Of a stretch of DNA of 32,000 bases, positions 247 to 20,199 are shown piece after piece. Below the pieces are notes generated by a model that ran no database searches, had not been told where the DNA came from, and was given only the letters and a program-made list of their open reading frames with translations. Both the position numbers and the translations under genes were made by a program. Where the stretch lies: contig JAZNBV010000035.1 of the NCBI GenBank assembly GCA_045587205.1, positions 3,372 to 35,371 on the forward strand, given 5' to 3'. Each line of letters opens with the position of its first letter. Positions within the stretch are counted from its first letter, which is position 1. This DNA is from Victivallaceae bacterium (GTDB taxonomy: Bacteria > Verrucomicrobiota > Lentisphaeria > Victivallales > Victivallaceae).

Positions 247-1602
247 TTACTCCGATCTGCCCGCCATCTTGCGCAAGGCGCCCAGCATAAGTTCAGAACC
301 TTTTACGCTGTACGGGTTGGAACGCGCCTGCGGTTCATATCCGCCTCTGCCATAGTTCCAACTGTTGGGGATATAACCGCCGGCCAGCTGCGGATTACCC
401 GACGGACCGTGACCGGCAACTATCGTGCGGTAATCGCAGAATATCTTTTTTCTGATTTCAAGACCGATCTCCACAAAGGGTTCGCCCGGCACGCCGATGA
501 TCGCCGCGCCGCCGACAAAGATACCCGGCAGCGGGAATGTGGTGTTTTTGGGCTGATCGCGCATCAATATCACCTGCTTGGCAAAGTATTTGAGCACTTT
601 GGGCAGTTTGCGCGCCAGGTCTTCGCTGGTGAGGTTGTCTGAATCGGTGACATCCGGTTCATCTTTGTATTTCTCAATAGTGGCAAGCGCTTCGGCATAT
701 TCCCCGTCGGTAACTTCGTGCGCCGGCACATACACTTCTGCAAATCTGGTCTCAAGCGGCATATCGTATGCTTTTTTAAGAGTGGGTATAGCCGCCATAA
801 TCGTAGATGCTATGCCCGTACCGATGCGTTCAGCTTCTGCGTAGCAAGTCTGATCCATATCAGTAGATACATCAAAATGATTGATATTGCCGGCCGTACC
901 GATAATGGGAGCAAACATAAAATCTTTATCCATCTGCGACTCGATGATCCGGCGGGCAAATCCCGGCCAGTCTGCAGAAACACTGCAGCCGCCAATGGTG
1001 TCGCTGTGGTTGACGATATTGGCGATCAGCAGCGCAAGTTTACCGTTGCGCTTGACCCCAAGCATCGGGATTTCCGGATCGACCGTACCTTCCGGACGGA
1101 GAATATCGGAATTGAGTTTGCCGGGGTTGGTAACCACCCCGCCTGACTTCATCCAGTAGCGGCGGTTGAAGATAAAGCGGTCATCCCAGGCGGCGCCCTG
1201 CACCAGTTCTGCTTCCTGCAGATTGTTCAGCGCCGCCCGCAGCGCCTGCGACACACCTTCGGCAACCTGTTCGGCACACTCATCGGCTCCCGGCAGATGA
1301 GCAAAGCGGATCTCCGGGCCTGTATGGGTATGTGTGGAGTTGAAAATCAGATTTTCTTTGCTGAAACAACCCAGATCTGCAATCTTGGGCATAACGCGGT
1401 CAACCAGCATCTGCGAACTGCTGATAAGGTCCATATTTACTATACCGGCGATTTTATTCCCCTGCTTGAAAACGATCGCACGCGCTTCCAGCCGGTCAAG
1501 GACTTTATCCCAGATCCGGATATTGAAATAACCTGCCAGCGAAACCGGCACCTGCGGGGTTATATCGCAACGGCCCCAGCCGCAAAAAAGTTTTTCATTC
1601 AT
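247..1602 (-). CDS. Neutral/alkaline ceramidase-like hydrolase (N-terminal ceramidase domain family), substrate unknown; paralog 1
   Basis: 451-aa ORF with a true ATG at 1602-1600. The motif NSTHTHTGPE resembles the Zn-binding THTHSGP motif of neutral ceramidases, and GGYEP occurs near the C-terminus. Its ATG overlaps the stop of the upstream membrane-protein gene (ATGA at 1602-1599). Confidence 0.6.
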   Translation of the reverse strand: MNEKLFCGWGRCDITPQVPVSLAGYFNIRIWDKVLDRLEARAIVFKQGNKIAGIVNMDLISSSQMLVDRVMPKIADLGCFSKENLIFNSTHTHTGPEIRFAHLPGADECAEQVAEGVSQALRAALNNLQEAELVQGAAWDDRFIFNRRYWMKSGGVVTNPGKLNSDILRPEGTVDPEIPMLGVKRNGKLALLIANIVNHSDTIGGCSVSADWPGFARRIIESQMDKDFMFAPIIGTAGNINHFDVSTDMDQTCYAEAERIGTGIASTIMAAIPTLKKAYDMPLETRFAEVYVPAHEVTDGEYAEALATIEKYKDEPDVTDSDNLTSEDLARKLPKVLKYFAKQVILMRDQPKNTTFPLPGIFVGGAAIIGVPGEPFVEIGLEIRKKIFCDYRTIVAGHGPSGNPQLAGGYIPNSWNYGRGGYEPQARSNPYSVKGSELMLGALRKMAGRSE

Positions 1603-3383
1603 TTTTTCTTCATCCTCTGTTCAAAAAGTATTTTTTTATAAGGAAATAATTTTTCCGACTTCTCAAGATATTCCCGCGCTCTGGCTTCATCGCCGCGCTT
1701 GAGATAAATCTCCGACATACGCTTGTGTGCCGAATGTGAACGCGGGGTCATTTCCAGAACCTTCCGGAAAAACTCTTCTGCTTTCACCAGATCGCCGCGG
1801 AAAAATTTTTCGTTGCCCCAGCAAATATATACACTGTGCGAATACGGTGCAGCCGCCAGTGCTGCCTGCGCCAGACGGTCAACAACAAAACTGCTCTGTA
1901 TATTCTTATTTTTCATTACGTCCTGCCCGGCAGCTTCCTGCAGTCTGAAATAGCGCTGATCAGCTATGCTCCAATGCGTTCCGCCGGTCACTGAACACAG
2001 TGCCAATACACTTAAAACTGCACAAAAGAGATATTTCTGACTCTTCTTATCGCCCGAACCCATCGCAGAATCCCCTGCTGAATATCCGGCAATGCACAAC
2101 GCTGCCAGTTGATAATAAATCATCAGTGCCGGCACCTGCCAATCCATATCCATAAGTATGTGCAGAGAAAAAGCACTGATGCCGAAAAAGAATAAACAGC
2201 TTTCCACTGCGGGCTTTTTCTGCATATATCTATAAGCAATAAAAAGCGTGTACAATATAATAAATCCGATCAGCAGCAATCCGCCGATCCCGGTTTGCGC
2301 TGCAAATGCGGCAAGCATATTGTGCGGATCTTTGGCAAGTTCTTCACTGCCGAAACTTTTGTTCTGCGCGTGATGAAAAACAAAATCCCCCCAGCCGTCA
2401 CCGGTAAACGGGTGGGCAATAAACATTTCCCAGCTGCTTTTCAAATATCCCACGCGCTCTTCCATTGAACCGAAACCGCGCCCGGCATAATGTATGTACA
2501 CTGCCCCCAGAATAATGACCAGCAAAGCTACCGTGGAAAGCGCGATTTTCACTTTTACATTACGGATTATGCCCCACCCAGTCAACGCTCCGGCAAGTAT
2601 CACCGCCAGAAAAGCACCACGACCGCGCGCCGCCAGAAAAATAAATCCGCACAAAATCAACGCCAGAGTAAAAAATATTTTCTGCGAAACTTTTACCGGT
2701 TCAAAATTTTCCGCCCATTTTACCGGACGCACCACCGCCATAGCTCCCCACAGCGCCAGCAACCCGGCAAGCGCACTGGCAAAAGTAAAAGTGGAGTGTA
2801 CCCGTACATCGTAGGCACGCGCTTTTATTCCTTCCGGAATGGTTACGTTGTAGATTTTTTCCTGCATTTCAATAAAATCGCGCATATCATCAAAGCCGAA
2901 AAAGTACTGATGAACCCCGATTACAGCGGTAAAAAGCACACTGGCAACTGCCGTATTCACCACCTTGTCAAGCATATCGCGCCGGTTTGCCATCTGGATA
3001 ACTGCCGCAGCAAAAAATGAACTCAACCCCAGAGTGTACTCTAATTCGATAACTGCATTTTCGTAACTGTCACAATCGATAAAGCCGATCATTGTTACCA
3101 ATGGCAAAAGCAGCCATAACAGCAGAAGTATGCTTTCGGCACTCCATTTTTTCAGCGATTCCGGAATCCCATAAGCAATCAGCGATACAATCAGCAAAAC
3201 TCCCGCGATCACCGGAAAAAGCGCCGGCGGCCACGCCGTAACCACCCACGCCATAGCCGAATCCGGGAAACCCTGCGGCGCACCCGGCAGAAGCATAACG
3301 CCCATTTTCAATGGTGCAATAAACACAGTCAGCAGAAAAAGCACTCCGGCAAGCGGCTGTAATTTTTTTGGGAATCCGTTCAT
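1599..3383 (-). CDS. O-antigen ligase (Wzy_C)-like polytopic membrane protein with C-terminal TPR repeats
   Basis: Many hydrophobic helices. HNMLAAFAAQTGIGGLLLIGF matches the O-antigen-ligase family motif (HN..L....E/Q.G..G). The C-terminus (GNEKFFRGDLVKAEEFFRKVLEMTP...YLKRGDEARAREYLEKS) is TPR-like. I prefer ATG 3383 (MNGFPKK, 10 nt after the pdxB stop) to ATG 3446, which would overlap pdxB by 53 nt. Confidence 0.65.
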   Translation of the reverse strand: MNGFPKKLQPLAGVLFLLTVFIAPLKMGVMLLPGAPQGFPDSAMAWVVTAWPPALFPVIAGVLLIVSLIAYGIPESLKKWSAESILLLLWLLLPLVTMIGFIDCDSYENAVIELEYTLGLSSFFAAAVIQMANRRDMLDKVVNTAVASVLFTAVIGVHQYFFGFDDMRDFIEMQEKIYNVTIPEGIKARAYDVRVHSTFTFASALAGLLALWGAMAVVRPVKWAENFEPVKVSQKIFFTLALILCGFIFLAARGRGAFLAVILAGALTGWGIIRNVKVKIALSTVALLVIILGAVYIHYAGRGFGSMEERVGYLKSSWEMFIAHPFTGDGWGDFVFHHAQNKSFGSEELAKDPHNMLAAFAAQTGIGGLLLIGFIILYTLFIAYRYMQKKPAVESCLFFFGISAFSLHILMDMDWQVPALMIYYQLAALCIAGYSAGDSAMGSGDKKSQKYLFCAVLSVLALCSVTGGTHWSIADQRYFRLQEAAGQDVMKNKNIQSSFVVDRLAQAALAAAPYSHSVYICWGNEKFFRGDLVKAEEFFRKVLEMTPRSHSAHKRMSEIYLKRGDEARAREYLEKSEKLFPYKKILFEQRMKKK

Positions 3384-3393
3384 AAAACTTTTG

Positions 3394-4524
3394 TTACTTG
3401 AGTTTAAATCCGAGCTTTGACAATATATTCCCGGTCTGTTCGTCATAATTACTTACGGTAAACGCGGGAAATTCGCGGCGCAGCGGATAGCTGCCGCGCA
3501 ATTTTTCAAAATCCGCCGGAAAATCTTTCAAGCGCCGGCTGTCATCGGCTATGTTGTAGGACTCCGCTGTCACCGCCAGGAGTTTTTCTTCCAGAGTGCC
3601 CTCTGCAGGTACACTCAAAAGCGTATTTTCCGGCAGCGGCACATTATCCGGGTAATAATTTTTCAACTCCTGCGGCAAATCAAAAAATTCCGCCAGAGCG
3701 CGCACGCTCATACTTGTACCGTTGGCCTTGCCGTCAGTGGAATATCCGGCAATATGCGCAGTGGCAAAGTCAAGCAGTTTGAGCAATTCCAAATCTATCT
3801 CCGGCTCATTTTCCCATACATCCAGCGCCGCCCCGGCAAGCAAACCGTTTTCCAGAGCCTTACGCAAAGCAGCATTATCGACCACCTCGCCGCGCGAAGC
3901 ATTGACTAAATACTGATTTTTACACATTCTGCTGATAAATCCGGCATCAACCAGATGATAAGTCGGGTCACTGCCGTTGTACTCCAGCGGCACGTGAATG
4001 GTGATTATATCAGCGGATTTGATTATTTCATCAAGTTCAACAAATTTTCCACTGCCTTCAGCTCTGGCACGCGGCGGGTCATTGAGCAGAACTTTCATAC
4101 CCAGTGCTTCAGCAGCTGCGGCAACCTTTTTGCCGACGTGCCCTACGCCGACCACACCCAGAACTTTTCCTGCCAGCGCAAATTTGTCTTTTACTGCCCA
4201 ATTCAGCAGCAGACTGGTTATGTACTGCGCCACACTCGAAGAGTTGCAGCCGGGGGCATTGGTCCAGCAGATATTGTTTGCCCGGGCGTAATCAGTATCG
4301 ATGTGATCAAAACCGATCGTTGCCGTGGCAATAAACTTTACGCGTGAACCATCCAGCAATTCCCTGCGGCATTTGGTACGGGTACGCGTTATAAGTGCAT
4401 CGGCATCGCGCACTGTATCTGCGGAAGTTTTCGCCCCGGGACAATACTCCACAGCAATATCGCTGCAACGCTCCAGAACACCTTTCAGAAAGGGTATTTT
4501 ATCATCGGCAACTATTTTAAGCAT
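3394..4524 (-). CDS. pdxB: 4-phosphoerythronate dehydrogenase (pyridoxal phosphate biosynthesis)
   Basis: Reads like E. coli PdxB across most of its length: MLKIVADDKIPF..., ATIGFDHID, GVVGVGHVGKK, NASRGEVVDN, HIAGYS, and the C-terminal dimerisation region with FEKLRGSYPLRREF. The track start at 4536 is TTG; the ATG at 4524 gives the canonical N-terminus. Confidence 0.9.
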   Translation of the reverse strand: MLKIVADDKIPFLKGVLERCSDIAVEYCPGAKTSADTVRDADALITRTRTKCRRELLDGSRVKFIATATIGFDHIDTDYARANNICWTNAPGCNSSSVAQYITSLLLNWAVKDKFALAGKVLGVVGVGHVGKKVAAAAEALGMKVLLNDPPRARAEGSGKFVELDEIIKSADIITIHVPLEYNGSDPTYHLVDAGFISRMCKNQYLVNASRGEVVDNAALRKALENGLLAGAALDVWENEPEIDLELLKLLDFATAHIAGYSTDGKANGTSMSVRALAEFFDLPQELKNYYPDNVPLPENTLLSVPAEGTLEEKLLAVTAESYNIADDSRRLKDFPADFEKLRGSYPLRREFPAFTVSNYDEQTGNILSKLGFKLK

Positions 4525-5167: not shown

Positions 5168-5276
5168 CGCAACAATACTGCCGCTTCGGCGGTCTTGAAT
5201 AATAAACGCTGTGTGGAGAAAAATTCCCCGTGCGGCGTTTTGCAGTTTATCAGGGATTTTTAATACGGAGCAATAT

Positions 5277-6191
5277 ATGGAACAGGATTGTCTTATCCGC
5301 GGGTTACACTCTGACCTTAATTTGCGTGCAGTCTGGGCGGAAACCACCAGTCTGGTCAACGCCGGGATCACTATTCACGATACAGATCCGGCAGCGGCGG
5401 GCGCGTTTGCTTCGGCATTGAGCGCCGCGGCCCTGTCGGCAGCTATGCTTGATGAAGGCGAACGCTTTTCCATCCGCTATGAATATCCCGGCAGTTTGCG
5501 CGGTATGATCATTGAATCCGCTGCCGACGGTTCAGTGCGCGGTGTTCCTTTTGCTCCTCACCCGCTGGACGGCGGCAAAAATGAGATCGGCGAACTCTAC
5601 GGCGACAATGACGGTATGATCTATGTCACCAGTTCTTCAGCTGACGGCAAACTGCTGAATTCCGGTCAAACCCGCGCCCCGCTGGCGGATCCGGCAAACG
5701 ATCTGGCATTTTTCTTTTGCGTAAGCAATCAGCTGGAAACAGAAATCCGCACCTGGGTGGAATTCCAGAGCGATCCGCAGCAGCCGGTGGTACGGATGTC
5801 AGCATTTATGCTTCAGGCAATGCCGGGGTGCGATCTGGAACTGTTCAGCCAGCTGCGCAACGCTATACACAGCGCCGCGGCAAATGAACTGCGCAAAAAG
5901 ATTGATCTGGTGAACGAACCGGAAAAGAGTATGAAAGATTTTCTTGCTGCGCTGGCACACAATGCCAATGTGGAAGATTTCAACCCGGATAAATGTATTT
6001 TCACATTCGGCGTAAAACCGCGCTGGCAGTGCCGCTGCAGCGAAGAAACTATGCGCCGTGCTATGACAGTTCTGGGCAAAGATGATCTGGAAAAACTTTT
6101 TGACGAACGCCCCGAACCGGCTATCCAATGCAATTTCTGCCGCCGCAGTTACAAATTCAAACGCGACAATTTTTTTCCTAAAATAGATTAA
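5277..6191 (+). CDS. hslO: Redox-regulated chaperone Hsp33
   Basis: The C-terminal zinc switch is CRCS...(about 30 aa)...CNFCRRSY (CXC...CXXC). The N-terminal region is Hsp33-like (LIRGL...LRAVWAETTSLVNAGITIHDTDPAAAGAFASALSAAALSAAML). I prefer ATG 5277 (MEQDCLIRG) to the track start 5211, giving 304 aa. Confidence 0.85.
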   Translation: MEQDCLIRGLHSDLNLRAVWAETTSLVNAGITIHDTDPAAAGAFASALSAAALSAAMLDEGERFSIRYEYPGSLRGMIIESAADGSVRGVPFAPHPLDGGKNEIGELYGDNDGMIYVTSSSADGKLLNSGQTRAPLADPANDLAFFFCVSNQLETEIRTWVEFQSDPQQPVVRMSAFMLQAMPGCDLELFSQLRNAIHSAAANELRKKIDLVNEPEKSMKDFLAALAHNANVEDFNPDKCIFTFGVKPRWQCRCSEETMRRAMTVLGKDDLEKLFDERPEPAIQCNFCRRSYKFKRDNFFPKID

Positions 6192-6206: not shown

Positions 6207-6235
6207 TTGACAAGTCAGGGCTTTTACATTATATT
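6207..6235 (+). promoter_or_regulatory. Near-consensus sigma70-type promoter for the ceramidase-like/DUF2339/DUF3999 operon
   Basis: TTGACA (6207-6212), an exact 17-nt spacer (6213-6229), then TATATT (6230-6235). It lies 44 nt upstream of ATG 6279, with GAAAGG as a likely SD at 6265-6270. Confidence 0.6.
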
Positions 6236-6278
6236 ACCTGTAATAACTTCTGGGTAAATAATGTGAAAGGAATTTGTT

Positions 6279-7586
6279 ATGTTCAGAATGGGTTGCGCCA
6301 AAGCCGATACCACCCCCGGATTTCCTGTCTATCAACGCGGCTATGCCAGCAGAAATAAGCTCGCCGTTAAAATCGAAGATCCCATCGAAGCCGGAGTTAT
6401 AGTGCTGGAACAGGATGGGAAAAAAATTCTGCTCCTTACCGTTGACCATATCGGCATAGAGTATCAGTACTGCCGGAAGATCGCCCAAGCCATAGCTCCG
6501 GTTGCCGGTATTGCCGAAGAAGATATTTTCATTAACTGTTCGCACACTCATTTTGCCCCCGGATTCAAGGCTTATACAGTCTATTTTCCTGACGGTGAAC
6601 TGAAACCCGGCAGATACGCAGAAGATACTGCATACTTTAACTTCTGGCTTGATAAAGTGCTGGCGGCAGTTAAGCACGCGGTGTCTGATCTGGAAGAGGT
6701 AACTTTGCTGCAGGCAGATATTCCGGTAACGAGTGTATCGTTCAACCGCCGCACGGTCCGGAAATCTGATGGCGGAGTGGATACCAATTACACCTATCCG
6801 CTGCAGGCGGATAAATACAATTTTTCGCCCGTTGACCCGACGTTGAATGTCTGGAAGTTTATGCGCGGAAATACGCCTAAAGCGGTTCTGGCGCGTTTCA
6901 GCTGTCACCCGGTGACGGGCGGATACGATCTTTATGCTGTTTCCGCAGATTATCCCGGTTATTTCAAACGTGCGGTGCAGGAAAAACTCCACTGTCCGGG
7001 ATTCTTTATGCAGGGCGCCGTTGGCGACTCGGTGCCGATGCTGCGCAACGGCAAATCGCGTCAGGATATAGGCGAAATTCTGGCGTCCAGCATCCGCCTT
7101 GCCGAACGGACATTCCGCGAAACAAGCAACTTTACGTTGAAAAGTGCCACCGTTATGCTCCCGCTTACCGCACCGGCAGCGGAAGGTAAAAGCAATGCTG
7201 ATCTGGAAAAGCTCTGGGCGGAAGCGATGGAAGAAAATGTAAAACGACAGGATTATTCCGATGATATATATATGCGGAATATGCTCTGCGAAACAATTCT
7301 TGCCTATGGCAATGAAAAACGCGAAATGCCCATAAAACTCATCCGCCTGGGCGATATAACGCTGGTCGGTCTGCCGTTTGAAGTGTTGACCATTGTAGGC
7401 AAAAAAATCCAGGAAAAATTCCCCGATGCTGTGATTTGCAGCTGTACCAACGGATACGGATGCTATCTGCCGCTGGCGGAAGATTTCCCCAAAGGCGGTT
7501 ACGAACCTTTGCGCGGTACTGTCTGGGCTCCGGAAACCGGCGACGAAGTGGTAAAACTGACAGTAAAGGCGCTGGCTGAAATGTAA
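6279..7586 (+). CDS. Neutral/alkaline ceramidase-like hydrolase, substrate unknown; paralog 2
   Basis: 435 aa. It shares with the 247..1602 product the layout G.a.DiTP..PV...GY, the motif CSHTHFAPG (versus STHTHTGPE) and a C-terminal KGGYEP. The two look distantly related by eye (low identity). Confidence 0.6.
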   Translation: MFRMGCAKADTTPGFPVYQRGYASRNKLAVKIEDPIEAGVIVLEQDGKKILLLTVDHIGIEYQYCRKIAQAIAPVAGIAEEDIFINCSHTHFAPGFKAYTVYFPDGELKPGRYAEDTAYFNFWLDKVLAAVKHAVSDLEEVTLLQADIPVTSVSFNRRTVRKSDGGVDTNYTYPLQADKYNFSPVDPTLNVWKFMRGNTPKAVLARFSCHPVTGGYDLYAVSADYPGYFKRAVQEKLHCPGFFMQGAVGDSVPMLRNGKSRQDIGEILASSIRLAERTFRETSNFTLKSATVMLPLTAPAAEGKSNADLEKLWAEAMEENVKRQDYSDDIYMRNMLCETILAYGNEKREMPIKLIRLGDITLVGLPFEVLTIVGKKIQEKFPDAVICSCTNGYGCYLPLAEDFPKGGYEPLRGTVWAPETGDEVVKLTVKALAEM

Positions 7587-7615
7587 AAAATCAACTGTTT
7601 TCCCGGAGGGTATTT

Positions 7616-10090
7616 ATGGATGGATTGTTTTTGACCGTACTTTTTGCGGCAGTTGCCTTTGGAATTGTTTTTCCGGTAGTCTGTATGGTAAGTTTGAACA
7701 GAATCAGCCGGAAACTTTCTGATATGGAGTGCAAGATCAATCTTTTATACATAAATAAACTGAAAACGCAATCCGGGGAAACAATTGCAAATACAGAACT
7801 GCCGGAAGTTGATATTCCGGAAGAGCAGACTGTTCCTGTTCCGGCAGAAAAACCGTTGGAGCCGGAAGCAGCACTTACTCCGGAAAGTACGCCCAAAACA
7901 GCATCCGCTCCGGAGATAAAAACTGAACTCAAGCCGGAATTTGCTGCTGAAGCAGCGGCTCCTGAAGCATATAAAACTCCGGGCAGGCTCGAAAAATTTC
8001 TGGATCTTCAGAGCGAAAAACTCAATGATAAAATTGCCGGTTTTGAAGACCGTTCCGCTATCGTTCTGCACAAGATCGCCAGCTGGATAACCGTGGGCGA
8101 AGAATACCGCACCGCCGGTGTGGCGCGCGAATACGCCGTTGCCACCACCTGGCTGATCCGGCTGGGGGTAATAATTCTGCTTTGCGGAATCGGATTTTTC
8201 CTCAAATACTCAATCGACCGCAACTGGACGCCGCCGGCGGTACGGGTGATACTTATGACTGTTACCGGGCTGGCTGTGACCGTTGCCGGTTCGTGGAAAA
8301 GCCGCGGCAAATACCGCCCGCTTGCCATAGCGCTTGCCGGGGCGGGGATCGTAACGCTTTATTTGAGCATTATGACCGCGTACAAACTCTATGACCTTAT
8401 TCCGGCTCCGTTGGCATTTGCCTTTATGGTCGCGGTAACAGCGGCGGCAATGGCAAGCGCGTTGTCTGCCAATGCATTGCTGACGGCGCTGCTGGGGTGT
8501 ACCGGTGGATATCTTACGCCGGTATTTATCAACACCGGTTCGCAGAATATAACTGCACTTTTCATCTATATGACCATCTTGAGCAGCGGAACACTGTTGG
8601 CGGCGCGTTACAAAAACTGGGCGCTGCTGAATATATCAAGTTTTGTTATGTATTTGTGTATCGGTGCAGCGGCAGTAAATTATCTGCCGCAAAAGCACGC
8701 ATTGGCGGTGATCGCGCTGCTGGCGGTGAATTATCTGATTTTCACGCTCCAGCAGATATCATCTTCGTTCAAGCGTGATATGAGCATTGTTGAAGCGGTA
8801 ATGTTCTGCGGAAATATTGCATTTTTCTTTGCTGCGGCTCTGACATTGAGTTCGCGTTATTATTCTGATTGGCAGCTGCCGGCACTGGTATCACTGTTTG
8901 CGGCAGCGGCGGCATTTACCGCAATCATATATTTGACTTGCAAGATCAAGCATCCGCCGGTTGCCTTGATGATCTTTCTGCAGATACAACTCTGCTTTGC
9001 CCTGACTTTAACTGTACCGCTGCTGCTCGGCGGAGTGTGGGTGGTTGCCGCGTGGTCGGTTATGGCATATCTGCTTATGAGTTCGGCACTCAAACTCAAA
9101 AGCCGGACTCTTTTGTGTGCATCGGTGATCCTTTATCTGGTTACGGCAGTGCGCGAAATTGCTGTACCGGCGGCATTCACCGGAGAATATGCAAGTTATC
9201 TTGACCAACTGCTGGCACATCTGCTGACGGCGGGCGTTTACATTGCTTCACTGACCGCCGCCGGAATAAAACTTATGCGTTCAGTCAAAACAGAAAAATC
9301 TCCGGAAACCATACCGGTACTCGGTGGATTATCGCAGTTGTTCACCGGAGCGGCGGCAGGGATATTTTTTCTCTATTCAAGTTACGAAATTTTCTCGGCG
9401 GTCAGCTGCGGCATTTACGATTTCCGTTACGGCGTGCTGGTGCTGTACTGGAGTGTGATATTTGCATTGCTCTGCCGGATATTCCGCAAATATATGCTTT
9501 TCAAACTTACGGTTCTGCCGGTGATACTGGCGGCGCTGGCCGGAATATGGATGCTTATATGGGGCGAACCGTACACTATTGCCAACATTTACTGGAAAAG
9601 TTTTCTCTTTACTGTACTGACTGCGGGTATCTATATAAGTGCACTGCTCTTTACGGCAAAAGAACTTGTCAAAACCGCGCGAACAAACTCCCTTCCGGAA
9701 AATCAGCAGAATACCTTGAAAACTCTGGCGGTGATATTTTACACCCTTGCGGGCGTATTGTTCTGGATTTACAGCAGCAGAGAATTGTATGAATTTCTGA
9801 AAGAGTACCTCTCAAGTTTCCGCAACGGCGGCCTCTCTGTTTACTGGAGCGCGCTGGCATTTATTCTGCTGGTGTGGGGGCTTAAAAAGCAATACAAGGC
9901 TCTGCGTATGACCAGTATAGCATTGTTTGTAACAGTGGCATTCAAGATATTTTTTATCGATTTAGCCAATCTTGAGCAGCTTTGGAGGATCGTGGCATTT
10001 GCGGCAATCGGCACAGTTATGCTTGTAGGCGCAGTATTGTATATACGCTGTAAGGATATGTTTATAAAAAACAATGAGGATTCAGAATGA
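7616..10090 (+). CDS. DUF2339-like giant polytopic membrane protein
   Basis: 824 aa. It has an N-terminal TM (LFLTVLFAAVAFGIVFPVVCMV) and a Pro/Glu/Ala-rich linker (about aa 60-120). After that, hydrophobic helices are almost uninterrupted to the C-terminus, with internal repeats. Length and architecture match my recollection of the DUF2339 'predicted membrane protein' family. GGAGGG lies 5 nt upstream of the ATG. Confidence 0.6.
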   Translation: MDGLFLTVLFAAVAFGIVFPVVCMVSLNRISRKLSDMECKINLLYINKLKTQSGETIANTELPEVDIPEEQTVPVPAEKPLEPEAALTPESTPKTASAPEIKTELKPEFAAEAAAPEAYKTPGRLEKFLDLQSEKLNDKIAGFEDRSAIVLHKIASWITVGEEYRTAGVAREYAVATTWLIRLGVIILLCGIGFFLKYSIDRNWTPPAVRVILMTVTGLAVTVAGSWKSRGKYRPLAIALAGAGIVTLYLSIMTAYKLYDLIPAPLAFAFMVAVTAAAMASALSANALLTALLGCTGGYLTPVFINTGSQNITALFIYMTILSSGTLLAARYKNWALLNISSFVMYLCIGAAAVNYLPQKHALAVIALLAVNYLIFTLQQISSSFKRDMSIVEAVMFCGNIAFFFAAALTLSSRYYSDWQLPALVSLFAAAAAFTAIIYLTCKIKHPPVALMIFLQIQLCFALTLTVPLLLGGVWVVAAWSVMAYLLMSSALKLKSRTLLCASVILYLVTAVREIAVPAAFTGEYASYLDQLLAHLLTAGVYIASLTAAGIKLMRSVKTEKSPETIPVLGGLSQLFTGAAAGIFFLYSSYEIFSAVSCGIYDFRYGVLVLYWSVIFALLCRIFRKYMLFKLTVLPVILAALAGIWMLIWGEPYTIANIYWKSFLFTVLTAGIYISALLFTAKELVKTARTNSLPENQQNTLKTLAVIFYTLAGVLFWIYSSRELYEFLKEYLSSFRNGGLSVYWSALAFILLVWGLKKQYKALRMTSIALFVTVAFKIFFIDLANLEQLWRIVAFAAIGTVMLVGAVLYIRCKDMFIKNNEDSE

Positions 10091-11454
10091 AGTTTTTTAC
10101 CTGTCTTTTACTTGTATTGAGCATAAATTGCTGTTTAAGCGCTGATTCCGGACTTTCCCCTTACACCCACTGCCGGAGCGTTATGCCGCCATACGATATA
10201 GTTGCCGGAAAAAACGGTCAAACCTGTCCGGTGGTAAAAAACACTTACAACAAACTGCCGGTGATCGTACTCGATAAAGAGTTTTACAGCCGCCTGAATC
10301 CGGACAAAAACAATATTGCTGTTGCCGACGGCAAAACTTTTCTGCCCTTCGCGGTGCAGAAACTTTATAAACACTCTTCCCGACTCAATTACACTCCCCT
10401 GTCCGGCAGGATCACGGCTTTTCATATTGACCGCCAAAGCAACAGGGCGGTGATTGATTACGCTATCAGCAATCCGGATAATCTTCCGGTCGGCAGATTG
10501 GAAATCGATCCACAGAGCCGCAGAAAATTCAATAAAAAGGTTGTTTTAGAGTTTGAAAACGGCAAAACTTCGCAACAGTTTGATTTTTTCAACCACGCCG
10601 GAACGGTGGATTTTTCGCGGCACAAATTCGACTTTACGCCGTGTAAAATCAGCAAAGTGCAGATAAAAATTTCGCCCTTTGCCGAACAGCACAGCAGCAC
10701 CGATCAGTTACAGCACCGCGGGGATAATGAAAATTTTACCGAAAAAAAGATCTTTACCGAAGAATTGAGCATCAACAGCATAAAATTTTATGCCGCAGAA
10801 ACTGAAATTTATAAAAGCGAACTTCTGAAAACCGAACACGATATATCTGCTGTAAATATATCCAGCCAGCCCGGTAAAAGCATCTGGGAATTTGCTCTGC
10901 AGAAGGTTCCGGTAATTGAGTTGAGTGCAGTTTCTTCCACGCCCAACTATCACCGCCGCTATACGCTTGAATTCAGCAATACTGTTGATGGCAAAAAAGC
11001 GGCTGTAAAAACGCTCCGCGGCATACTCACGCCCGGGTTCCGGCTCAAATTTGATGAAATACGCGCAGAAAAAGCTGTTCTGACGATCGACGATCTTTCG
11101 AATCCGCCGCTTGCAGATACCGTCTTCGGCTGGGTGTCGCCGCAGGAAGCTGTCATTATTGAGCCGACCCGGCTGCCGCAAGATGTATTTTTTGTATTTT
11201 TCGGCGGCGAAGTGCAGAATCCGATGCAATTTGATTTCAAACACTATATTGATAAATTCAACTCGTGGGATTACTCTCCTCTGGAAATCAGCGCTGCAGC
11301 AGAAAATACATTAAAAAATAACCCGGAAAAAACAGCCTGGAAAAAGGTTATACAGAAAATCCTGCCCTATTTTATCGGAGCAATTATCCTGCTGCTGGCG
11401 GCATTCAGCTGCAAACTGATGCGTAAAGTCCGCCCCGACGATTACGAGTGGTAA
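10087..11454 (+). CDS. DUF3999-like secreted protein with C-terminal membrane anchor
   Basis: 455 aa. It has an N-terminal signal peptide (MKFFTCLLLVLSINCCLSA), a soluble beta-rich-looking body, and a C-terminal TM (ILPYFIGAIILLLAAFSC) followed by basic residues. The ATG overlaps the DUF2339 stop (ATGA at 10087-10090). The length fits what I recall for DUF3999 (mid-400s aa), as does adjacency to DUF2339. Confidence 0.55.
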   Translation: MKFFTCLLLVLSINCCLSADSGLSPYTHCRSVMPPYDIVAGKNGQTCPVVKNTYNKLPVIVLDKEFYSRLNPDKNNIAVADGKTFLPFAVQKLYKHSSRLNYTPLSGRITAFHIDRQSNRAVIDYAISNPDNLPVGRLEIDPQSRRKFNKKVVLEFENGKTSQQFDFFNHAGTVDFSRHKFDFTPCKISKVQIKISPFAEQHSSTDQLQHRGDNENFTEKKIFTEELSINSIKFYAAETEIYKSELLKTEHDISAVNISSQPGKSIWEFALQKVPVIELSAVSSTPNYHRRYTLEFSNTVDGKKAAVKTLRGILTPGFRLKFDEIRAEKAVLTIDDLSNPPLADTVFGWVSPQEAVIIEPTRLPQDVFFVFFGGEVQNPMQFDFKHYIDKFNSWDYSPLEISAAAENTLKNNPEKTAWKKVIQKILPYFIGAIILLLAAFSCKLMRKVRPDDYEW

Positions 11455-11704: not shown

Positions 11705-14122
11705 TTATTTTTCAAACCCCAACCTGCGGATATCCAGTAAAGGTTCGGTAAAAATCACAAAACGTCTGACTTCCGCCCAGTCATTGAGCATTCTTGCCAT
11801 ACCTGGCCCACCGGTATTAAAGGGGCGGATGCCGTCAGCACCATCCATCATAAAGCGGTAATAGATCGACTTCCACTGATTGTTTGAGCAATATATCTGT
11901 ACCGGGCGCTTCACCAGACCGGCTTCTTCTTCCGGAGTCGGGTCGTGACCGTCAATAGTACTTTCCACGCGGGGATAGAGTTTGACCGGGATCGGAGATT
12001 TTTTTATCATTTCCCGGAACGGAGTCAGTGAAAAAAGTTTTTCAGGACCATTACCGTAGAACCCCGGCGAAATGGCATCCACCAGACCTTCTTCCAGAAA
12101 ACGATCCACCGGAGTACCGTATTTTTTATAATTTTCGCAATCGATATGTACTTCCAGTTCAATAGCCGGATGGATCTTTTTGATTTCGGAACGTACTTCA
12201 CGGAGCCATCCGGTCATAATTTCGCCAATCATTTTCTGCCAGCGTTCATTACCGACATCGTTCCAGTTGCAGAAACCGTACAAACGGGTGTATTCATCGA
12301 TCAACGGTTTATCATATCCGAAAAAAGCCGGGTGCCGCAGAAAGTCAATCACCAGTGCATCCGGCTTGTAAGCGGCGATTTCCTTTGCCATTGCCAGATA
12401 AAAGTCGCGGACTTCCTTATAAGCGTAACTGGGCTTGGGAGTTTTTCCCCAGCGCTGTACTATACCGAATTCGGGGTGATCTATAAGGTACTGCGCGTTT
12501 TTATCGCAGTTTTTTGCCGAATAAAATGCATTGGCACGCAAAGTTACAGTATAACGGACATTATATTTACGAGTGGCTTCGCGCAGGATCTGCACTGAAT
12601 CTTTGCCGGTTGTCCGGATAAGTTTTTCCACCCGTTCTGCCGCCAACCGGTCACCTTTACGGGCAAATCTTACATTACGCTGCTTACCGAACATTGTACT
12701 GACTTTGCTCGGATAATTTGTTGCACAGGTACCGACACACCAATCATATGCTATAACATTGCCGGATGCTGTATTTTTTATCCTGTCGTGCAATATTTTT
12801 TCGGTGATCTCGCGTCTGAAAAAGTCGCTGAATCCGTCGCCGTGCGAAATTATGCTCCGACGACCGGGAAGACTCTTTTCTGCAAAGATTTTTTTCTGTT
12901 CATCATCAGCTTTTACAATAAAGACTTCACCCAGCTGAGCGCCGGCATTTTTTGCAGTAAAACTTATATTGTCACCGGTTTTGAATTCATAGATTCCCAG
13001 AAAATTTTCGCCGGTGATCCATTGATTACTGTCGTGTTTTGGCGCCCAGAGATCAAGAACCACATTATTTTTTTTCACTCCGGGGGCATTGAAAGTAAAT
13101 GCACTCTTTCCCCGGATAACAGCATAGACAGCATAACTTCCGCTGACCGGTATATTGAATTCGATCTTTGCATTGGCTTTATCTGCCGAGTAAAATGGTA
13201 CTGTTGTATTACCGATGAGGATATTTTTAATACTCCAGTTGGTATGTTTTTCCGTTTTAAGGATCTTTTTTTCCGGCAGATAAAATATCTTTATCTCTCG
13301 CGTTGCCCAGATTATACCGTCACTGCCGATGGCGGAAACTTCCAAAGTATGCACACCGTAAGGTACATCTTTTATCTGCAGCGGAATGGTACAAACGCTG
13401 CTGTTTTTCAATCCGCTTACATCTTTTTCCGCCAGAATGTTGCCATTTTTGAGTCTGACTGCAACTTTACCATTCTCGCCATTATGTCCGGCAAGCTGAA
13501 ACGTACAGTTGAACTTGCCGTCAGTACTCATCGGCACATTGAGTCCTGCAAAATTGATCTTGGCAAATACCTTGACGTGTTTGTGATCGTACAATACACG
13601 GTAGATGTAACTGTCTTGCGCCCACGGTATGTAGATACGGAAGTATCTGCCGTAAAAATCCCCCTTCAGGGTAATACGGTTGCACAGTGTAACCTTTTTG
13701 CGGTAATCAGTTTTGGTGTAAAAAAGTTGTTCGATTCCGGTTTTGACGAGCTTATATTTTTTGCCGTCCATACTTACATAAACAAAGGCTTCCCGGATTT
13801 CATCGCCTTTTACCTTATACGCGTTAAGCTGTTCGCAATCCAGCACTATACGCGAAAGCAATTCCGGATTTTTGAGCATAAAATCCATATAGCGGTTATT
13901 ATAAGGTATCGCCAGACTCGGTCCCGGCTTGAGCAAAGTAAACGGTATATCGGTAAGATCGGTATCTTTTTTGCAGCTGTTCCATCCCCAGCCGGCAATA
14001 TGAACAGAATCTTTTCCCCACGCCTGATCAAGTTTGGACACATCCGGCAGATTTTCCATTGCCAAAAGCGGCAAAGCAAAAATCAGACTTGATAAAACAC
14101 TGCATATTCTTCCGATATTCAT
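11705..14122 (-). CDS. Secreted multi-domain protein with a C-terminal glycoside-hydrolase-like TIM-barrel (GHL10/YngK-like) and N-terminal beta-sandwich (CBM/Ig-like) modules
   Basis: I prefer ATG 14122 (MNIGRICSVLSSLIFALPLLA, a signal peptide) to the track start 14179. The C-terminal half (YAYKEVRDFYLAMAKEIAAYKPDALVIDFLRHP...IELEVHID) resembles GHL10-type hydrolase-like domains. The N-terminal two thirds look like jelly-roll/Ig repeats. The family call is tentative. Confidence 0.45.
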   Translation of the reverse strand: MNIGRICSVLSSLIFALPLLAMENLPDVSKLDQAWGKDSVHIAGWGWNSCKKDTDLTDIPFTLLKPGPSLAIPYNNRYMDFMLKNPELLSRIVLDCEQLNAYKVKGDEIREAFVYVSMDGKKYKLVKTGIEQLFYTKTDYRKKVTLCNRITLKGDFYGRYFRIYIPWAQDSYIYRVLYDHKHVKVFAKINFAGLNVPMSTDGKFNCTFQLAGHNGENGKVAVRLKNGNILAEKDVSGLKNSSVCTIPLQIKDVPYGVHTLEVSAIGSDGIIWATREIKIFYLPEKKILKTEKHTNWSIKNILIGNTTVPFYSADKANAKIEFNIPVSGSYAVYAVIRGKSAFTFNAPGVKKNNVVLDLWAPKHDSNQWITGENFLGIYEFKTGDNISFTAKNAGAQLGEVFIVKADDEQKKIFAEKSLPGRRSIISHGDGFSDFFRREITEKILHDRIKNTASGNVIAYDWCVGTCATNYPSKVSTMFGKQRNVRFARKGDRLAAERVEKLIRTTGKDSVQILREATRKYNVRYTVTLRANAFYSAKNCDKNAQYLIDHPEFGIVQRWGKTPKPSYAYKEVRDFYLAMAKEIAAYKPDALVIDFLRHPAFFGYDKPLIDEYTRLYGFCNWNDVGNERWQKMIGEIMTGWLREVRSEIKKIHPAIELEVHIDCENYKKYGTPVDRFLEEGLVDAISPGFYGNGPEKLFSLTPFREMIKKSPIPVKLYPRVESTIDGHDPTPEEEAGLVKRPVQIYCSNNQWKSIYYRFMMDGADGIRPFNTGGPGMARMLNDWAEVRRFVIFTEPLLDIRRLGFEK

Positions 14123-14150
14123 CGTACAGACCCTTTTTATTATATGGTTG

Positions 14151-14220
14151 ATCATAAAACAGGTACACCGTAAAATCAATATTGCAAATAAAATATATGA
14201 TATTTTTACCTTTTTCTCAA
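14151..14220 (-). promoter_or_regulatory. Two candidate sigma70-type promoters for the 805-aa gene
   Basis: Read on the minus strand. P1 is TTGAGA (14220-14215), N17, TATATT (14197-14192). P2 is TTGATT (14179-14174), N17, TATGAT (14156-14151). Both lie downstream of the rhaB terminator and upstream of ATG 14122. Confidence 0.4.
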
Positions 14221-14298: not shown

Positions 14299-15780
14299 TT
14301 ACAGCAGAGTTTTGAAGCGCTCCATATTATCGGCAAATATACGTTGCAGCTGCGGATCGACTTCGTAATTCACCACCGGGAAACTGTTGCGCACGATTTC
14401 GCGTGCCGCTGCCCAATCTGCCGCTGCCCCCACTGTAACCGCCTGGGCAAGAATATTACCGATCGCCGTAGCTTCGATAGGACCGGCAATCACCGGTCTG
14501 CCGATTGCTGCTGCCGCCTGACGCATCAGACGGCTGTCCTGCGTACCGCCGCCGATGATATTCAGCACCGGATACTTTTTGCCAACCGATTTTTCCAACT
14601 CATCAAGTTTACAGGCAAAGCAGAGCGCCAGCGAATCATACACCGCGCGCAATATGGCGGATTCATCCATATTTTCTGCTCCGGGCTGTCTGGTATCAAT
14701 ACAATACTGTCTGATACGCGCCGGCATATTATCCGGCGCCACAAAATCTGCAGCGCAGGGATTGATCAGAAAACCGCAGGGTTCAGCACTTTCCGCCATT
14801 GCTTCAAGCGTATCAAAACTTGCATCCATACCGCGCAATTTGAAATCACGGCGGCATTCCTGCAGCAGCCAGCAGCCCATAATATTGGTCAGATAACGGA
14901 TCTTGCCGTTCAAACCGCCCTCATTGGTAAAGGTCTGCTTGGATACATCGCAGCAAGGTTCATCAAGTTCGCACCCCAGCAGCGCCCAGGTTCCGCAGCT
15001 GACATACGCCGCATCTTTGCTGGCAGCCACCGGCACTGCGCCCACGGCACTGGCGGTATCGTGCGAACCGACTTTGATGATCGGAATTTCAGCAAGACCA
15101 CTGTTCTCTGCCAAAGCTTTATCGAGTTTGCCGCCAATCGTGCAAGGCTGAACGATCTCCGGAAAAATCTCCCGCGGCAGCTGAAGAAGGTCGATCAAAT
15201 CCCAATCCCAACTGCGAGTAACCGGATTCAGCAGATTACCGGTTGAAGCGTGGGTGTATTCGGCAGTGAAATCGCCGCCCAGAGCAAAACCAAGAGCATC
15301 AGGCATCGGCAGAAAGACTGCATCAGCAAGATCAGCAGGATTTTCCAGACGGTGTGCGGTAAGCTGATAAATTGTATTGAGCGACATAAACTGTATGCCG
15401 GTGCGTTTATACAAATCATCTTTGCTGATAAGTTTCTGCACTTCGGCTGCACCCCTGTCGCCGCGTTCATCGCGGTAATGATAGGGCAACCGCACCATTT
15501 CGCGGGTTTTATTGCTGAAAAGCACATAATCCACGCCCCAGGTATCGATCCCGATACCGGCAATATCGCTGGTGATCGCGGCGGCTTTGACAAGACCGGT
15601 TTTCAACTCATCTGCCAATGCCGGATAATCCCAATAGAGGGAATCACCGATCCGCTTGTGACCATTTTCAAAACGGTGAACTTCCTGCAGATCGAGTTTA
15701 CCATTTTCCAATTTACCGAGAATCGCCCGGCCGCTGGATGCCCCCAGGTCAAATGCGAGAAAATATTTTTTATCAGCCAT
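14299..15780 (-). CDS. rhaB: Rhamnulokinase (FGGY family)
   Basis: 493 aa. The N-terminus YFLAFDLGASSGRAILGKLENGKL.L.EVHRF.N is typical of RhaB, FGGY motifs run throughout, and the gene sits in a rhaA/aldolase context. True ATG at 15780. Confidence 0.85.
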   Translation of the reverse strand: MADKKYFLAFDLGASSGRAILGKLENGKLDLQEVHRFENGHKRIGDSLYWDYPALADELKTGLVKAAAITSDIAGIGIDTWGVDYVLFSNKTREMVRLPYHYRDERGDRGAAEVQKLISKDDLYKRTGIQFMSLNTIYQLTAHRLENPADLADAVFLPMPDALGFALGGDFTAEYTHASTGNLLNPVTRSWDWDLIDLLQLPREIFPEIVQPCTIGGKLDKALAENSGLAEIPIIKVGSHDTASAVGAVPVAASKDAAYVSCGTWALLGCELDEPCCDVSKQTFTNEGGLNGKIRYLTNIMGCWLLQECRRDFKLRGMDASFDTLEAMAESAEPCGFLINPCAADFVAPDNMPARIRQYCIDTRQPGAENMDESAILRAVYDSLALCFACKLDELEKSVGKKYPVLNIIGGGTQDSRLMRQAAAAIGRPVIAGPIEATAIGNILAQAVTVGAAADWAAAREIVRNSFPVVNYEVDPQLQRIFADNMERFKTLL

Positions 15781-15800
15781 TGCACAAATTTCCTTTTTTA

Positions 15801-16949
15801 TCAGCAGAAACTGTCCACACCCAGCAGCAGCAGCGCCAGATGCTTCTTCAATGCGGGATCTTCAAAATCATCGACCAGCAGCTGACCGGGTGCGTTCATT
15901 TCCGTACCCGCCAGAAGCGGCAGATCTTCATTAGCACATCCGAAAATAAAGCGGTCAAGTTCTTTCTGAAGAGCAGCGGTCTTTTCCGCTGTGCCGCCCG
16001 CCACATTTCGCGCCGGAATCAATGTTGCCGCCACAGTGCCGTATTCCTTATGCAGCGCCAACAGTTCATCAAGCGCGTTTTCCCCGGCAGAAAGACCGTT
16101 GAGCCACGCCAGGGTCGGCTTGGCGCCGCAAGCAGTAATGAACTCGTTCATATCCTTCAAAGTCGGGAAAGATTCCGGAGAAGGCTGCACATACCCCACC
16201 CCGCCGGACTTCATTGTCTTGGATCGGATAACGCCTTCAAGTTTGACCGGGTTATCCAGCAGCTTGGCGGCTTCCTCACAGCTTACGGCAAGTTTGCCGC
16301 TCCAGAACGCAGCCAATTCTGCCTTATCGGCAAAGACCTTTTCCGCAGCGTCGCGGTAGGCACTGCAGACGTGGCGCTCGGTAACATTGCCGAACGGAGT
16401 ATATTTTTTGGCGACTTCATCAAAGTCGATCGTTACCGGAGCAAGGTAGCCGTTGACCAATTCCACCACTTTGCGGGTGCGGTTGTTGGCATTTCTGCGC
16501 AGCATTTCGGCAAATGCTTTCTGCGACGCGGGCACTTTGCCGGATTTGAAACCGCAACCCAGATGATATGCAATCCCCGGTTCGCCGGGCGAATTGATCT
16601 CTTTATCAGCCAATTCCGGCACAAATACGCGCGTTTCCATACCGCAAGTACCGCGTACTTTCAAAAGTTTGAGTGCTTCGCGGAATTCATCCACGCCGTC
16701 AAGTACGTCAAAATCAACCAGACCGACGGCGTAAAAACCCATCTTCTTTGCCAGATAAACTATATAGCTGGGCGAATAACCGTAACCGTTGTACGAAAAG
16801 AAACTGTGGCAGTGCATATTGTGAATGGTGGACTTTTTTGCCGCCTCGATCGCACCTGATTCAAACCCTTCTTTCGCCTCAAGCAGCGCTGCTTTACGCA
16901 CGGCGGGGTCAAAATCGTTCAAACGCATTTCCAACGCTTTTATATCCAT
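15801..16949 (-). CDS. PHP-domain-like metal-dependent phosphoesterase family protein, function unknown
   Basis: 382 aa with a true ATG at 16949. HNMHCHSFFSYNGYGYSPSYIVYLAKKMGFYAVGLVDFD resembles PHP motifs I/II (D.H.HS..S.DG..sp.e.v..A...G..a.aiTDH). The gene is embedded between the aldolase/dehydrogenase gene and rhaB, with 38-nt and 20-nt gaps. Confidence 0.45.
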   Translation of the reverse strand: MDIKALEMRLNDFDPAVRKAALLEAKEGFESGAIEAAKKSTIHNMHCHSFFSYNGYGYSPSYIVYLAKKMGFYAVGLVDFDVLDGVDEFREALKLLKVRGTCGMETRVFVPELADKEINSPGEPGIAYHLGCGFKSGKVPASQKAFAEMLRRNANNRTRKVVELVNGYLAPVTIDFDEVAKKYTPFGNVTERHVCSAYRDAAEKVFADKAELAAFWSGKLAVSCEEAAKLLDNPVKLEGVIRSKTMKSGGVGYVQPSPESFPTLKDMNEFITACGAKPTLAWLNGLSAGENALDELLALHKEYGTVAATLIPARNVAGGTAEKTAALQKELDRFIFGCANEDLPLLAGTEMNAPGQLLVDDFEDPALKKHLALLLLGVDSFC

Positions 16950-16987
16950 AGATCAATCATCCCATATTAGATTTTTATTTGCAAAAA

Positions 16988-18880: not shown

Positions 18881-18904
18881 AATTTCAGCCTCTTTTTCCA
18901 ATAT

Positions 18905-20146
18905 TCAACGCTTGCTTAAAACTGTTTTTTCGTATTCCCGGATCTGATCGAACCAACCTGAACCCGGTACTTTGCAATATTCACAATATGCTTCCCACAT
19001 TGCCCCCAGCGGCAGAGTTTTGAAATCCTCCAACAGCGCCAGACGGGCGGTATTGTCATTGGATTCTTCGGCTTCACGCAAGGCTTCCACCGGCTCCAGC
19101 GCGGCGGCAAGCAGCGCCTTCTGCATACTGCGCGCGCCGATCGTCCAGGCGCCGATACGGTTGATCGAAGCATCAAAGTAATCCAACCCGATATGCACCT
19201 TTTTATCGTAATTGTACCGCAGTATCTCCTGGGCTATGGCATAAAGTTCATCATTAAGTGTCACCACGTGGTCGCTGTCCCAGCGGACGCCGCGGCTGAC
19301 GTGCAGCAGCAATTCATCTGCAAAAAGCAGCACGCTGGAAATCTTGTCGGAAATAACTTCCGTGGGGTGGAAGTGACCGGCATCCAGACAAACCATCTTG
19401 TTGTTTTTCATACAGTAAGCCAGATAAAACTCGTGCGAACCTACTGTACAGCTTTCCGCGCCGATGCCGAAAAGTTTGCTTTCCACAGCATCGCGGTTGT
19501 AATTCTGATCGATTTTTACAGCAAAAATCTCATCCAGTGATTCCTGAAGTCTGCGGCGCGGTGCTTCCCGGTCAAAGGGCGTATCCTTGAAGCCGTCCGG
19601 CACCCAGAAATTGGTTATGCACGCTGTACCCTGCGCCTTGCCGAACTCTTCAGCAATCTTACGGCAGGCTATACCGTGTTCGATCCAGTATTTGCGTATA
19701 TCCTTATCGGCATTACTCAAAGTAAAACCGTCCGCAGCTTTGGGATGGGCAAAAAATGTGGGATTGAAATCAAGAGCAATATTGTTTTCTTTGCCCCAAT
19801 CAAGCCAATTCCGGAAATTTTCAACAGTTATATTGTTGCGTTCAACCTTACCGGTTTTATCGTATTCAGCATACAATGCGTGCACATTCAGCCGTTTGGT
19901 ACCGGGCACCAGACTCATAACTTTATCGATATCAGCACGCAATTCCTGTGGGGTACGCGCTCTTCCGGGATAATTGCCGGTAACTGCCAGACCGCCGTCA
20001 AGCGAACCGGAATTTTCAAAACCGTTCACATCGTCGCCCTGCCAGCAATGGATGGAAACCGGTATGGCAGCCGCCCGACGGAAAGCGTTTTCCACATCTA
20101 CACCCCAGGCCCGGTAAATTTTTTCAGCTTCACTGAACAATGACAT
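18905..20146 (-). CDS. rhaA: L-rhamnose isomerase
   Basis: 413 aa from ATG 20146 (MSLFSEAEKIYRAWGVDVE...PVSIHCWQGDDVNGFE), which is the typical RhaA N-terminus and length. AAGGAAA lies upstream. The track start at 20245 would run through the terminator hairpin and into the upstream gene. Confidence 0.9.
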   Translation of the reverse strand: MSLFSEAEKIYRAWGVDVENAFRRAAAIPVSIHCWQGDDVNGFENSGSLDGGLAVTGNYPGRARTPQELRADIDKVMSLVPGTKRLNVHALYAEYDKTGKVERNNITVENFRNWLDWGKENNIALDFNPTFFAHPKAADGFTLSNADKDIRKYWIEHGIACRKIAEEFGKAQGTACITNFWVPDGFKDTPFDREAPRRRLQESLDEIFAVKIDQNYNRDAVESKLFGIGAESCTVGSHEFYLAYCMKNNKMVCLDAGHFHPTEVISDKISSVLLFADELLLHVSRGVRWDSDHVVTLNDELYAIAQEILRYNYDKKVHIGLDYFDASINRIGAWTIGARSMQKALLAAALEPVEALREAEESNDNTARLALLEDFKTLPLGAMWEAYCEYCKVPGSGWFDQIREYEKTVLSKR

Positions 20147-20166
20147 AACATTTTCCTTTTTTGAGC

Positions 20167-20199
20167 AAAAAAGGAGCATCACACCAATGCTCCTTTTTT
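20167..20199 (-). terminator. Rho-independent terminator or attenuator between the ROK-like gene and rhaA
   Basis: The stem AAAAAAGGAGCAT (20167-20179) pairs with ATGCTCCTTTTTT (20187-20199) around a 7-nt loop. It has a GC core of 7 bp plus an A/T extension. On the minus strand a U-run follows, then only about 20 nt to the rhaA ATG. Confidence 0.6.

Follow-up and report, generated by a model that had tools for sequence, protein, structure and literature searches.

We analysed three adjacent co-directional genes, here called g1, g2 and g3, in a 32-kb stretch of genomic DNA from a Victivallaceae bacterium (contig JAZNBV010000035.1; the window refers to this whole stretch). Our analysis points to g2 and g3 as a Lentisphaerae Arc3A/Arc3B pair, with a protective role by analogy to Pseudomonas aeruginosa, and to g1 as an independent neighbour. 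We give this reading a probability of about 0.72. An earlier note, made from the letters of the locus alone, had described DUF2339 and DUF3999 as uncharacterised families with no described mechanism and had proposed the locus as a candidate for an undescribed system. The first statement is out of date and the second does not hold for the pair, as the two families correspond to Arc3A and Arc3B, for which genetic and lipidomic data have been published (PMC8926400, PMC12663445).

Gene 2 and gene 3 as an Arc3A/Arc3B pair

In P. aeruginosa, PA5114 (DUF2339) is Arc3A and PA5113 (DUF3999) is Arc3B (Ting et al. 2022, eLife, PMC8926400). That study found arc3A to be the main determinant by which P. aeruginosa survives Tle3, a type VI phospholipase of B. 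thailandensis, and the defence was specific to Tle3. The arc3A mutant built up lysophosphatidylethanolamine (LPE) and monolysocardiolipin (MLCL) and was complemented by Arc3A homologues from other species, and the pathway was independent of Aas/LplT (PMC8926400). Independent confirmation came in 2025 from a study in Nature Communications, which reported Arc3 protection against TseL of V. cholerae and Tle1 of A. baylyi (PMC12663445). Homologues were defined by Ting et al. as PF10101 for Arc3A and an adjacent PF13163 for Arc3B, and we applied this criterion to g2 and g3. In several sentences of the section ‘Arc3 is a broadly conserved pathway’ and of the Figure 3 legend in PMC8926400 the two names are swapped; the assignment used here is settled by the gene table of that paper (arc3A,B = PA5114-13) and by its Methods (Arc3A = PF10101, Arc3B = PF13163).

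Upon hmmscan, g2 matched PF10101 (DUF2339) with 258.9 bits (E = 1.6e-76; cut-off 33.6). Its residues 177–809 spanned profile positions 2–656 of 659, and the DUF2339 label given to it earlier therefore stands over the whole profile. An N-terminal transmembrane (TM) helix is followed by a low-confidence linker rich in Glu, Ala and Pro (approximately residues 54–119), and at least 21 hydrophobic segments were counted, which agrees with the length, the N-terminal TM segment and the twenty or more segments described before. The AlphaFold2 (AF2) model of g2 (predicted local distance difference test, pLDDT, 78.6) was entirely helical and had about 23 helices between residues 171 and 815. Neither a Foldseek search of this model against the PDB (best E 0.08, not significant) nor a PDB sequence-profile search with the g2 family found a solved relative. 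The C-terminal part of g2 contains an internal tandem repeat (Table 1). Segments of the family alignment corresponding to its first two units aligned with each other in hhalign at 98.9% (E = 3e-17, 123 columns), and the third unit, residues 736–815, gave about 88%. A changed number of these repeats could explain why TM counts vary among Arc3A homologues.

We then collected 80 DUF2339 loci, one genome per species and mainly from the Planctomycetes-Verrucomicrobia-Chlamydiae (PVC) group and Methylococcales, and took the open reading frame (ORF) directly downstream. Among the 74 loci with enough downstream DNA, 66 had a co-directional DUF3999-like gene directly after the DUF2339 gene. The count itself gave 63, and L065, L072 and L079, in which the tblastn match ended early, were added by inspection. 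The earlier statement that the two families are often neighbours is borne out by this survey. Eight DUF2339 loci had no partner, which fits the published statement that Arc3A can be present where Arc3B is missing (PMC8926400). A stop/start overlap was present in 51 out of 67 pairs (a possible 4-nt overlap in 39 and a 1-nt overlap in 12). In the window, the stop codon of g2 and the start codon of g3 share ATGA at 10087–10090, and the two genes, as a conserved pair with this overlap, are evidently translationally coupled, as had been proposed.

Profile comparisons indicate that g3 is a divergent DUF3999 homologue. An alignment of the g3 family was compared in hhalign with an alignment of 41 partners taken from outside the g3-family loci, and the two matched end to end (99.6%, E = 1.6e-24, 395 columns). 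The hidden Markov model (HMM) of the g3 family matched 44 of 59 ORFs directly downstream of DUF2339 at E < 1e-3, and 36 of the 47 full-length ORFs in this position are Pfam PF13163. The g3 profile was also run, without positional bias, against 1.84 billion representative proteins, and 197 matches at E ≤ 1e-3 were found. Out of 90 distant full-length matches 63 were PF13163, and the bridging matches P0267 and P0272 exceeded the Pfam PF13163 cut-off.

As the earlier note stated, g3 has an N-terminal signal-like hydrophobic leader and a single C-terminal TM segment (residues 425–441). The C-terminal TM helix was present in all eight g3-family members and in 40 of 41 partners from other phyla. The AF2 model of g3 (pLDDT 76.9) was all-beta, consisting of beta-sandwiches plus the C-terminal helix. 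Foldseek against the PDB returned for this model only generic jelly rolls with TM-scores of at most 0.23 (birnavirus VP2, allantoicase and SGBP-B), which we treated as uninformative beyond ‘beta-sandwich’, and a PDB sequence-profile search with the g3 family was empty. The g3 protein is best described as an ectodomain in the periplasm that is anchored to the inner membrane.

Two side observations concern the DUF3999-like proteins. An F5/8 type C (discoidin) signature was found in 13 of the 90 distant DUF3999-like proteins; elsewhere this fold binds membrane phospholipids or glycans, which gives a hint at what the Arc3B ectodomain may contact. One 716-aa match, P0303, contains a C-terminal DUF2339 part (residues 150–263) followed by a g3/DUF3999-like region (residues 330–681). 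It is an apparent Arc3A-Arc3B fusion, or else a gene-call artefact; fusions of Arc3A and Arc3B are mentioned by Ting et al. (PMC8926400).

Compared with the proteins of P. aeruginosa, PA5114 and g2 are both full-length PF10101 proteins, very large, polytopic and dense in helices, and the gene of each has a coupled partner behind it. They differ in the number of predicted helices (35 in PA5114 vs about 21–23 in g2), for which the repeat of about 125 aa in g2 offers a route to variation, and g2 has in addition its N-terminal TM helix and linker. PA5113 and g3 are both of about 450 aa, lie directly downstream with a stop/start overlap, and have a beta-rich ectodomain that is exported and anchored by a C-terminal TM segment. 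PA5113, however, has a lipobox cysteine, to which its proposed outer-membrane anchor is due; g3 lacks this conserved cysteine and falls below the Pfam model. The Gac/Rsm control of Arc3A is inapplicable outside the gamma-proteobacteria.

Proposed role of the pair

By analogy with P. aeruginosa, g2 would be a giant inner-membrane Arc3A, whose core of about 20–23 packed helices would derive partly from the tandem repeat of about 125 residues. The g3 protein would be exported, with its beta-sandwich domains on the periplasmic face, tethered by the one C-terminal helix. The translational coupling of g2 and g3 suggests joint synthesis and a complex. A membrane complex of the pair, which the earlier note had also proposed, is plausible, as Arc3A was co-immunoprecipitated with Arc3B in P. 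aeruginosa (PMC8926400). Such a complex may limit the build-up of detergent-like lysophospholipids in the source organism under attack by a phospholipase A, which might be delivered as a type VI lipase effector or possibly come from a host or the environment. Most likely, the helix array would either sequester lysolipids until they are turned over or trap the enzyme; Ting et al. suggested the former, or recruitment and blocking of the enzyme, for Arc3 itself (PMC8926400).

The pair could instead be a general device of membrane homeostasis or stress, which buffers for example endogenous or dietary lysolipids or detergents, the Pseudomonas phenotype being one manifestation of it. The family is very widely distributed, including lineages without known type VI exposure, and environmental and endogenous lysophospholipids were both named as threats by Ting et al. 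(PMC8926400). The neighbours of the pair are constitutive-looking housekeeping genes with no toxin or immunity genes nearby, and a search with the anti-phage defence models of PADLOC gave 0 matches. All of these would suit such a role. In P. aeruginosa, however, arc3A mutants were impaired specifically against lipase effectors, and LPE stability was unchanged without antagonism. We consider the homeostasis role rather unlikely and prefer protection against lipase attack.

The window also encodes a transporter of the major facilitator superfamily (MFS; 24468–25775), which was considered as LplT and rejected, as it had only generic sub-threshold MFS matches.

Gene 1 and its junction with the pair

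Upon hmmscan, g1 scored 48.6 bits against Pfam PF04734 (Ceramidase_alk, N-terminal domain; cut-off 32.1), and its ceramidase-like label was upheld. The match covered only this N-terminal Pfam domain (profile positions 1–229 of 509), and the score against the NCBIfam equivalog NF041649 was 23.1 bits vs a cut-off of 1200. Residues H89, H91, R157, H210, E368, Y396 and Y408 of g1 aligned with H97, H99, R160, H204, E411, Y448 and Y460 of the bacterial neutral ceramidase of P. aeruginosa (PDB 2ZWS), which we take to be its Zn ligands and catalytic residues. The seven positions were invariant across 121 homologues, except that E368 was D in five. The N-terminal catalytic domain and the aligned residues are common to both proteins, but 2ZWS has 646 aa vs 435 aa in g1, and we found neither a signal peptide, nor a TM segment, nor the C-terminal domain of neutral ceramidase in g1. 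The equivalents in human neutral ceramidase are His196, Arg257, Tyr579 and Tyr591 (PMC6952831). A search of the literature on short bacterial Ceramidase_alk proteins and on the active-site residues of 2ZWS gave nothing usable. We read g1 as a candidate active cytoplasmic zinc amidohydrolase of neutral-ceramidase fold.

g1 belongs to a Lentisphaerae family with several paralogues per genome, which are arranged in tandem in L083. A second ceramidase-fold paralogue is encoded in the window at 247–1602 (−). It has 451 aa and 25% identity to g1, with the motifs HTH, R, H, E, Y and Y retained. Its gene overlaps by 4 nt that of a Wzy_C (O-antigen-ligase-like) membrane protein with tetratricopeptide repeats (TPR; 1599–3446, −), and the pairing of a ceramidase-like paralogue with Wzy_C recurs in L082 and L086.

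We searched 81 DUF2339 loci for relatives of g1, both by phmmer with g1 and with an HMM built from 121 members of its family. The search took in every ORF of 80 aa or more, up to 7–8 kb to either side as far as the contig reached, and found 0. A ceramidase-like gene as a recurrent companion of the pair, as the earlier note had considered, is therefore not supported. The orthologues of g1 (56–58% identity) keep the block of genes seen in the window, namely Fpg, Wzy_C, a PdxB-like dehydrogenase, DUF1805, NifU, Hsp33 and g1. A ceramidase-like paralogue follows Fpg in L086 and L087 only, and a second one lies between Hsp33 and the g1 orthologue in L083–L085. In these Hsp33 blocks, what follows the g1 orthologue is not DUF2339 but a hairpin terminator and convergent genes of unrelated kinds.

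Upstream of the pair in four other Lentisphaerae lineages we found a glutamate dehydrogenase gene, a hydrogenase operon, a divergent gene for a 213-aa protein and a divergent TetR gene. In L093, a TetR-family regulator gene at 7256–7822 (−) lies divergently and directly upstream of the DUF2339 gene and is a candidate local regulator. The neighbours of 62 pairs were heterogeneous, with 87 Pfam families upstream, of which none was shared by more than 5 ORFs, and 113 downstream, of which none was shared by more than 2. No recurrent third partner was found either upstream or downstream of these 62 pairs. The trio g1-g2-g3 was seen only in the window and in its 95–99%-identical relative L082. Since g1 orthologues occur without the pair, the pair elsewhere follows other genes, and no g1 relative occurs in the 81 loci, the ‘three-gene module’ is, on these genome comparisons, a seam between two synteny blocks, and the junction a recent and lineage-specific one. 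In the source species arc3AB would have landed directly behind the independent g1.

These comparisons bear directly on the view that the three genes are one functional envelope module, in which g1 processes a lipid or polymer handled by the DUF2339/DUF3999 complex. The genes are tightly packed behind a single strong promoter-like site, and neither a terminator nor a further promoter-like site interrupts them, which would fit a module, as would the complete catalytic site of g1. Lipid enzymes also adjoin arc3 elsewhere: P. aeruginosa has estA next to it, and many bacteria have aas (PMC8926400). In the arc3A-arc3B-estA unit a hydrolase of lipid type is, as here, co-oriented and probably co-transcribed with the pair; estA, however, is a downstream esterase and g1 an upstream amidase-fold enzyme. 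But estA, although co-transcribed with arc3, is dispensable for Arc3 defence in P. aeruginosa (PMC8926400). A g1 enzyme in the cytoplasm would also be separated from a g3 facing the periplasm. With the absence of g1 from DUF2339 loci, its orthologues followed by terminators, the unrelated genes upstream of the pair in other Lentisphaerae and the restriction of the trio to the window and one near-identical relative, we regard such a module as quite improbable. The lipid or envelope-polymer substrate once suggested for all three genes is without comparative support, g1 being unlinked to the pair.

A related idea is that the insertion of arc3AB into the g1 transcription unit was adaptive. Arc3 pairs would repeatedly recruit enzymes of lipid turnover (cf. 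estA and aas), with g1 removing an N-acyl- or lyso-lipid product that Arc3A would bring to the cytoplasmic leaflet. If true, this linkage would be the first biochemical handle on the Arc3 mechanism. It is disfavoured because the comparative data oppose it and estA is dispensable in Pseudomonas, and we hold it to be very doubtful; an independent g1 remains our preferred explanation.

The physical layout of the locus was as described in the earlier note. The coordinates of the co-directional trio behind the near-consensus promoter were exact, with all elements on the plus strand, and both junctions, the gap with its ribosome-binding site and the ATGA overlap, were as reported (Table 1).

Table 1. 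Coordinates of the main features of the g1-g2-g3 locus in the window.
Feature	Position	Strand	Description
Sigma-70-like promoter candidate TTGACA-N17-TATATT	6207–6235	+	11/12 consensus match; promoter of g1
g1 ORF	6279–7586	+	435 aa
g1-g2 spacer	7587–7615	+	29 nt; ribosome-binding site GGAGGG at 7605–7610, 5 nt before ATG; no terminator-like site
g2 ORF	7616–10090	+	824 aa; Arc3A-family (DUF2339)
Internal tandem repeat of ~125 aa in g2	9041–10060	+	residues 476–599, 608–731 and, weaker, 736–815
g3 ORF	10087–11454	+	455 aa; divergent Arc3B-family (DUF3999-like)

The promoter candidate sits within the 87-nt spacer between g1 and the Hsp33 gene (5211–6191). A TTGACA box is found at the equivalent place 5′ of g1 orthologues, including those of 56–58% identity, in L082, L086 and L083. 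Sites with at least 11 of 12 consensus matches number two in the whole window on both strands, vs about 0.5 expected under a first-order Markov model. The other one, TTGAAA-18-TATAAT at 29086–29115 (−), is inside the 3′ part of a GDSL-like ORF (28900–30063), about 200 nt upstream of the RmuC gene (27479–28879). No promoter-like site with at least 9 of 12 matches was found in 7001–7616, the approximately 600 nt upstream of g2, and no hairpin terminator of the kind that follows g1 orthologues elsewhere was found in the g1-g2 gap. Co-transcription of g1, g2 and g3 from the 6207 promoter in the source organism, as the earlier note had claimed, is likely because there is neither such an internal site nor a terminator between g1 and g2. 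The intergenic region upstream of the pair in relatives is 120–230 nt long, and in L089 it has a 10/12 promoter-like site. In the source species the pair would have lost its own promoter region; the g1 promoter therefore probably serves g2 and g3 as well. An antisense ORF at 6234–6992 (−) lies entirely beneath g1 and its promoter and was rejected as spurious.

Farther downstream, the window has a rhamnose catabolism cluster at 14299–20245 (−) with an FGGY kinase, a PHP-domain protein, a fusion of an aldolase with a short-chain dehydrogenase/reductase (SDR), and RhaA. Such a cluster was also found downstream of the pair in two other Lentisphaerae lineages (L001 and L093). Between the pair and the cluster is a convergent 824-aa ORF at 11705–14179 (−) with weak GHL10 and F5/8-type-C hints. 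This ORF is absent at the equivalent place in L001 and L093, and was perhaps inserted in connection with glycan use.

Strength of the Arc3 assignment and its meaning

Several points weigh against the assignment of the pair to Arc3 with a protective role. Arc3B gave little to defence in pairwise assays (PMC8926400). The link of g2 and g3 to Arc3 runs through identity of Pfam family, not through direct alignment with PA5114 and PA5113. The count of 66 in 74 loci is partly circular, as the partner HMM was built from partners chosen by position; it is supported independently by the PF13163 fractions among the downstream ORFs and the library matches given above. Scans with the sigma-70 consensus carry no validation for the phylum of the source organism. 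The g3 family does not conserve the cysteines found in the leader of g3, and the PA5113-type lipobox is absent. Of the 41 partners that were sampled in other phyla, only 6 had a lipobox-like motif, the leader of the other 35 being without it. The lipid anchor of PA5113 type is thus not a general feature of the family. The g3 leader would be of signal-peptidase-I type, and an outer-membrane lipid anchor for g3 is unlikely.

Lastly, Pfam hmmscan found no DUF3999 (PF13163) match for g3 or for seven close relatives, even at E ≤ 10, and the Pfam and NCBIfam scans of g3 gave noise only (Reovirus_L2_7th, E = 0.086; EssA, E = 0.0034, on the TM tail). The DUF3999-like label of the earlier note therefore failed at the level of Pfam hmmscan and held at the level of profiles, with the end-to-end hhalign match and the PF13163 majority among distant matches. 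That g3 is an unrelated anchored exoprotein merely placed after DUF2339, as this lack of a Pfam or NCBIfam match for g3 and its close relatives might suggest, can be dismissed, for its family aligns with the partners over their whole length, the library-wide profile search runs continuously into PF13163 proteins, and g3 matches the partners in length, topology and overlapping junction.

The DUF2339/DUF3999 pair of the window is an ordinary divergent member of the already known Arc3A/Arc3B system. DUF2339/DUF3999 pairs may now be read as Arc3A/Arc3B membrane-defence pairs, which corrects a gap in annotation. The Lentisphaerae Arc3B clade is invisible to the current Pfam model, and surveys based on PF13163 therefore undercount Arc3B. 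The locus further indicates that tight, operon-like packing is poor evidence of a functional module, as here it reflects a recent junction of two synteny blocks. The repeat of about 125 residues in Arc3A and the F5/8-type-C signatures in some DUF3999 proteins may aid structural work on Arc3.

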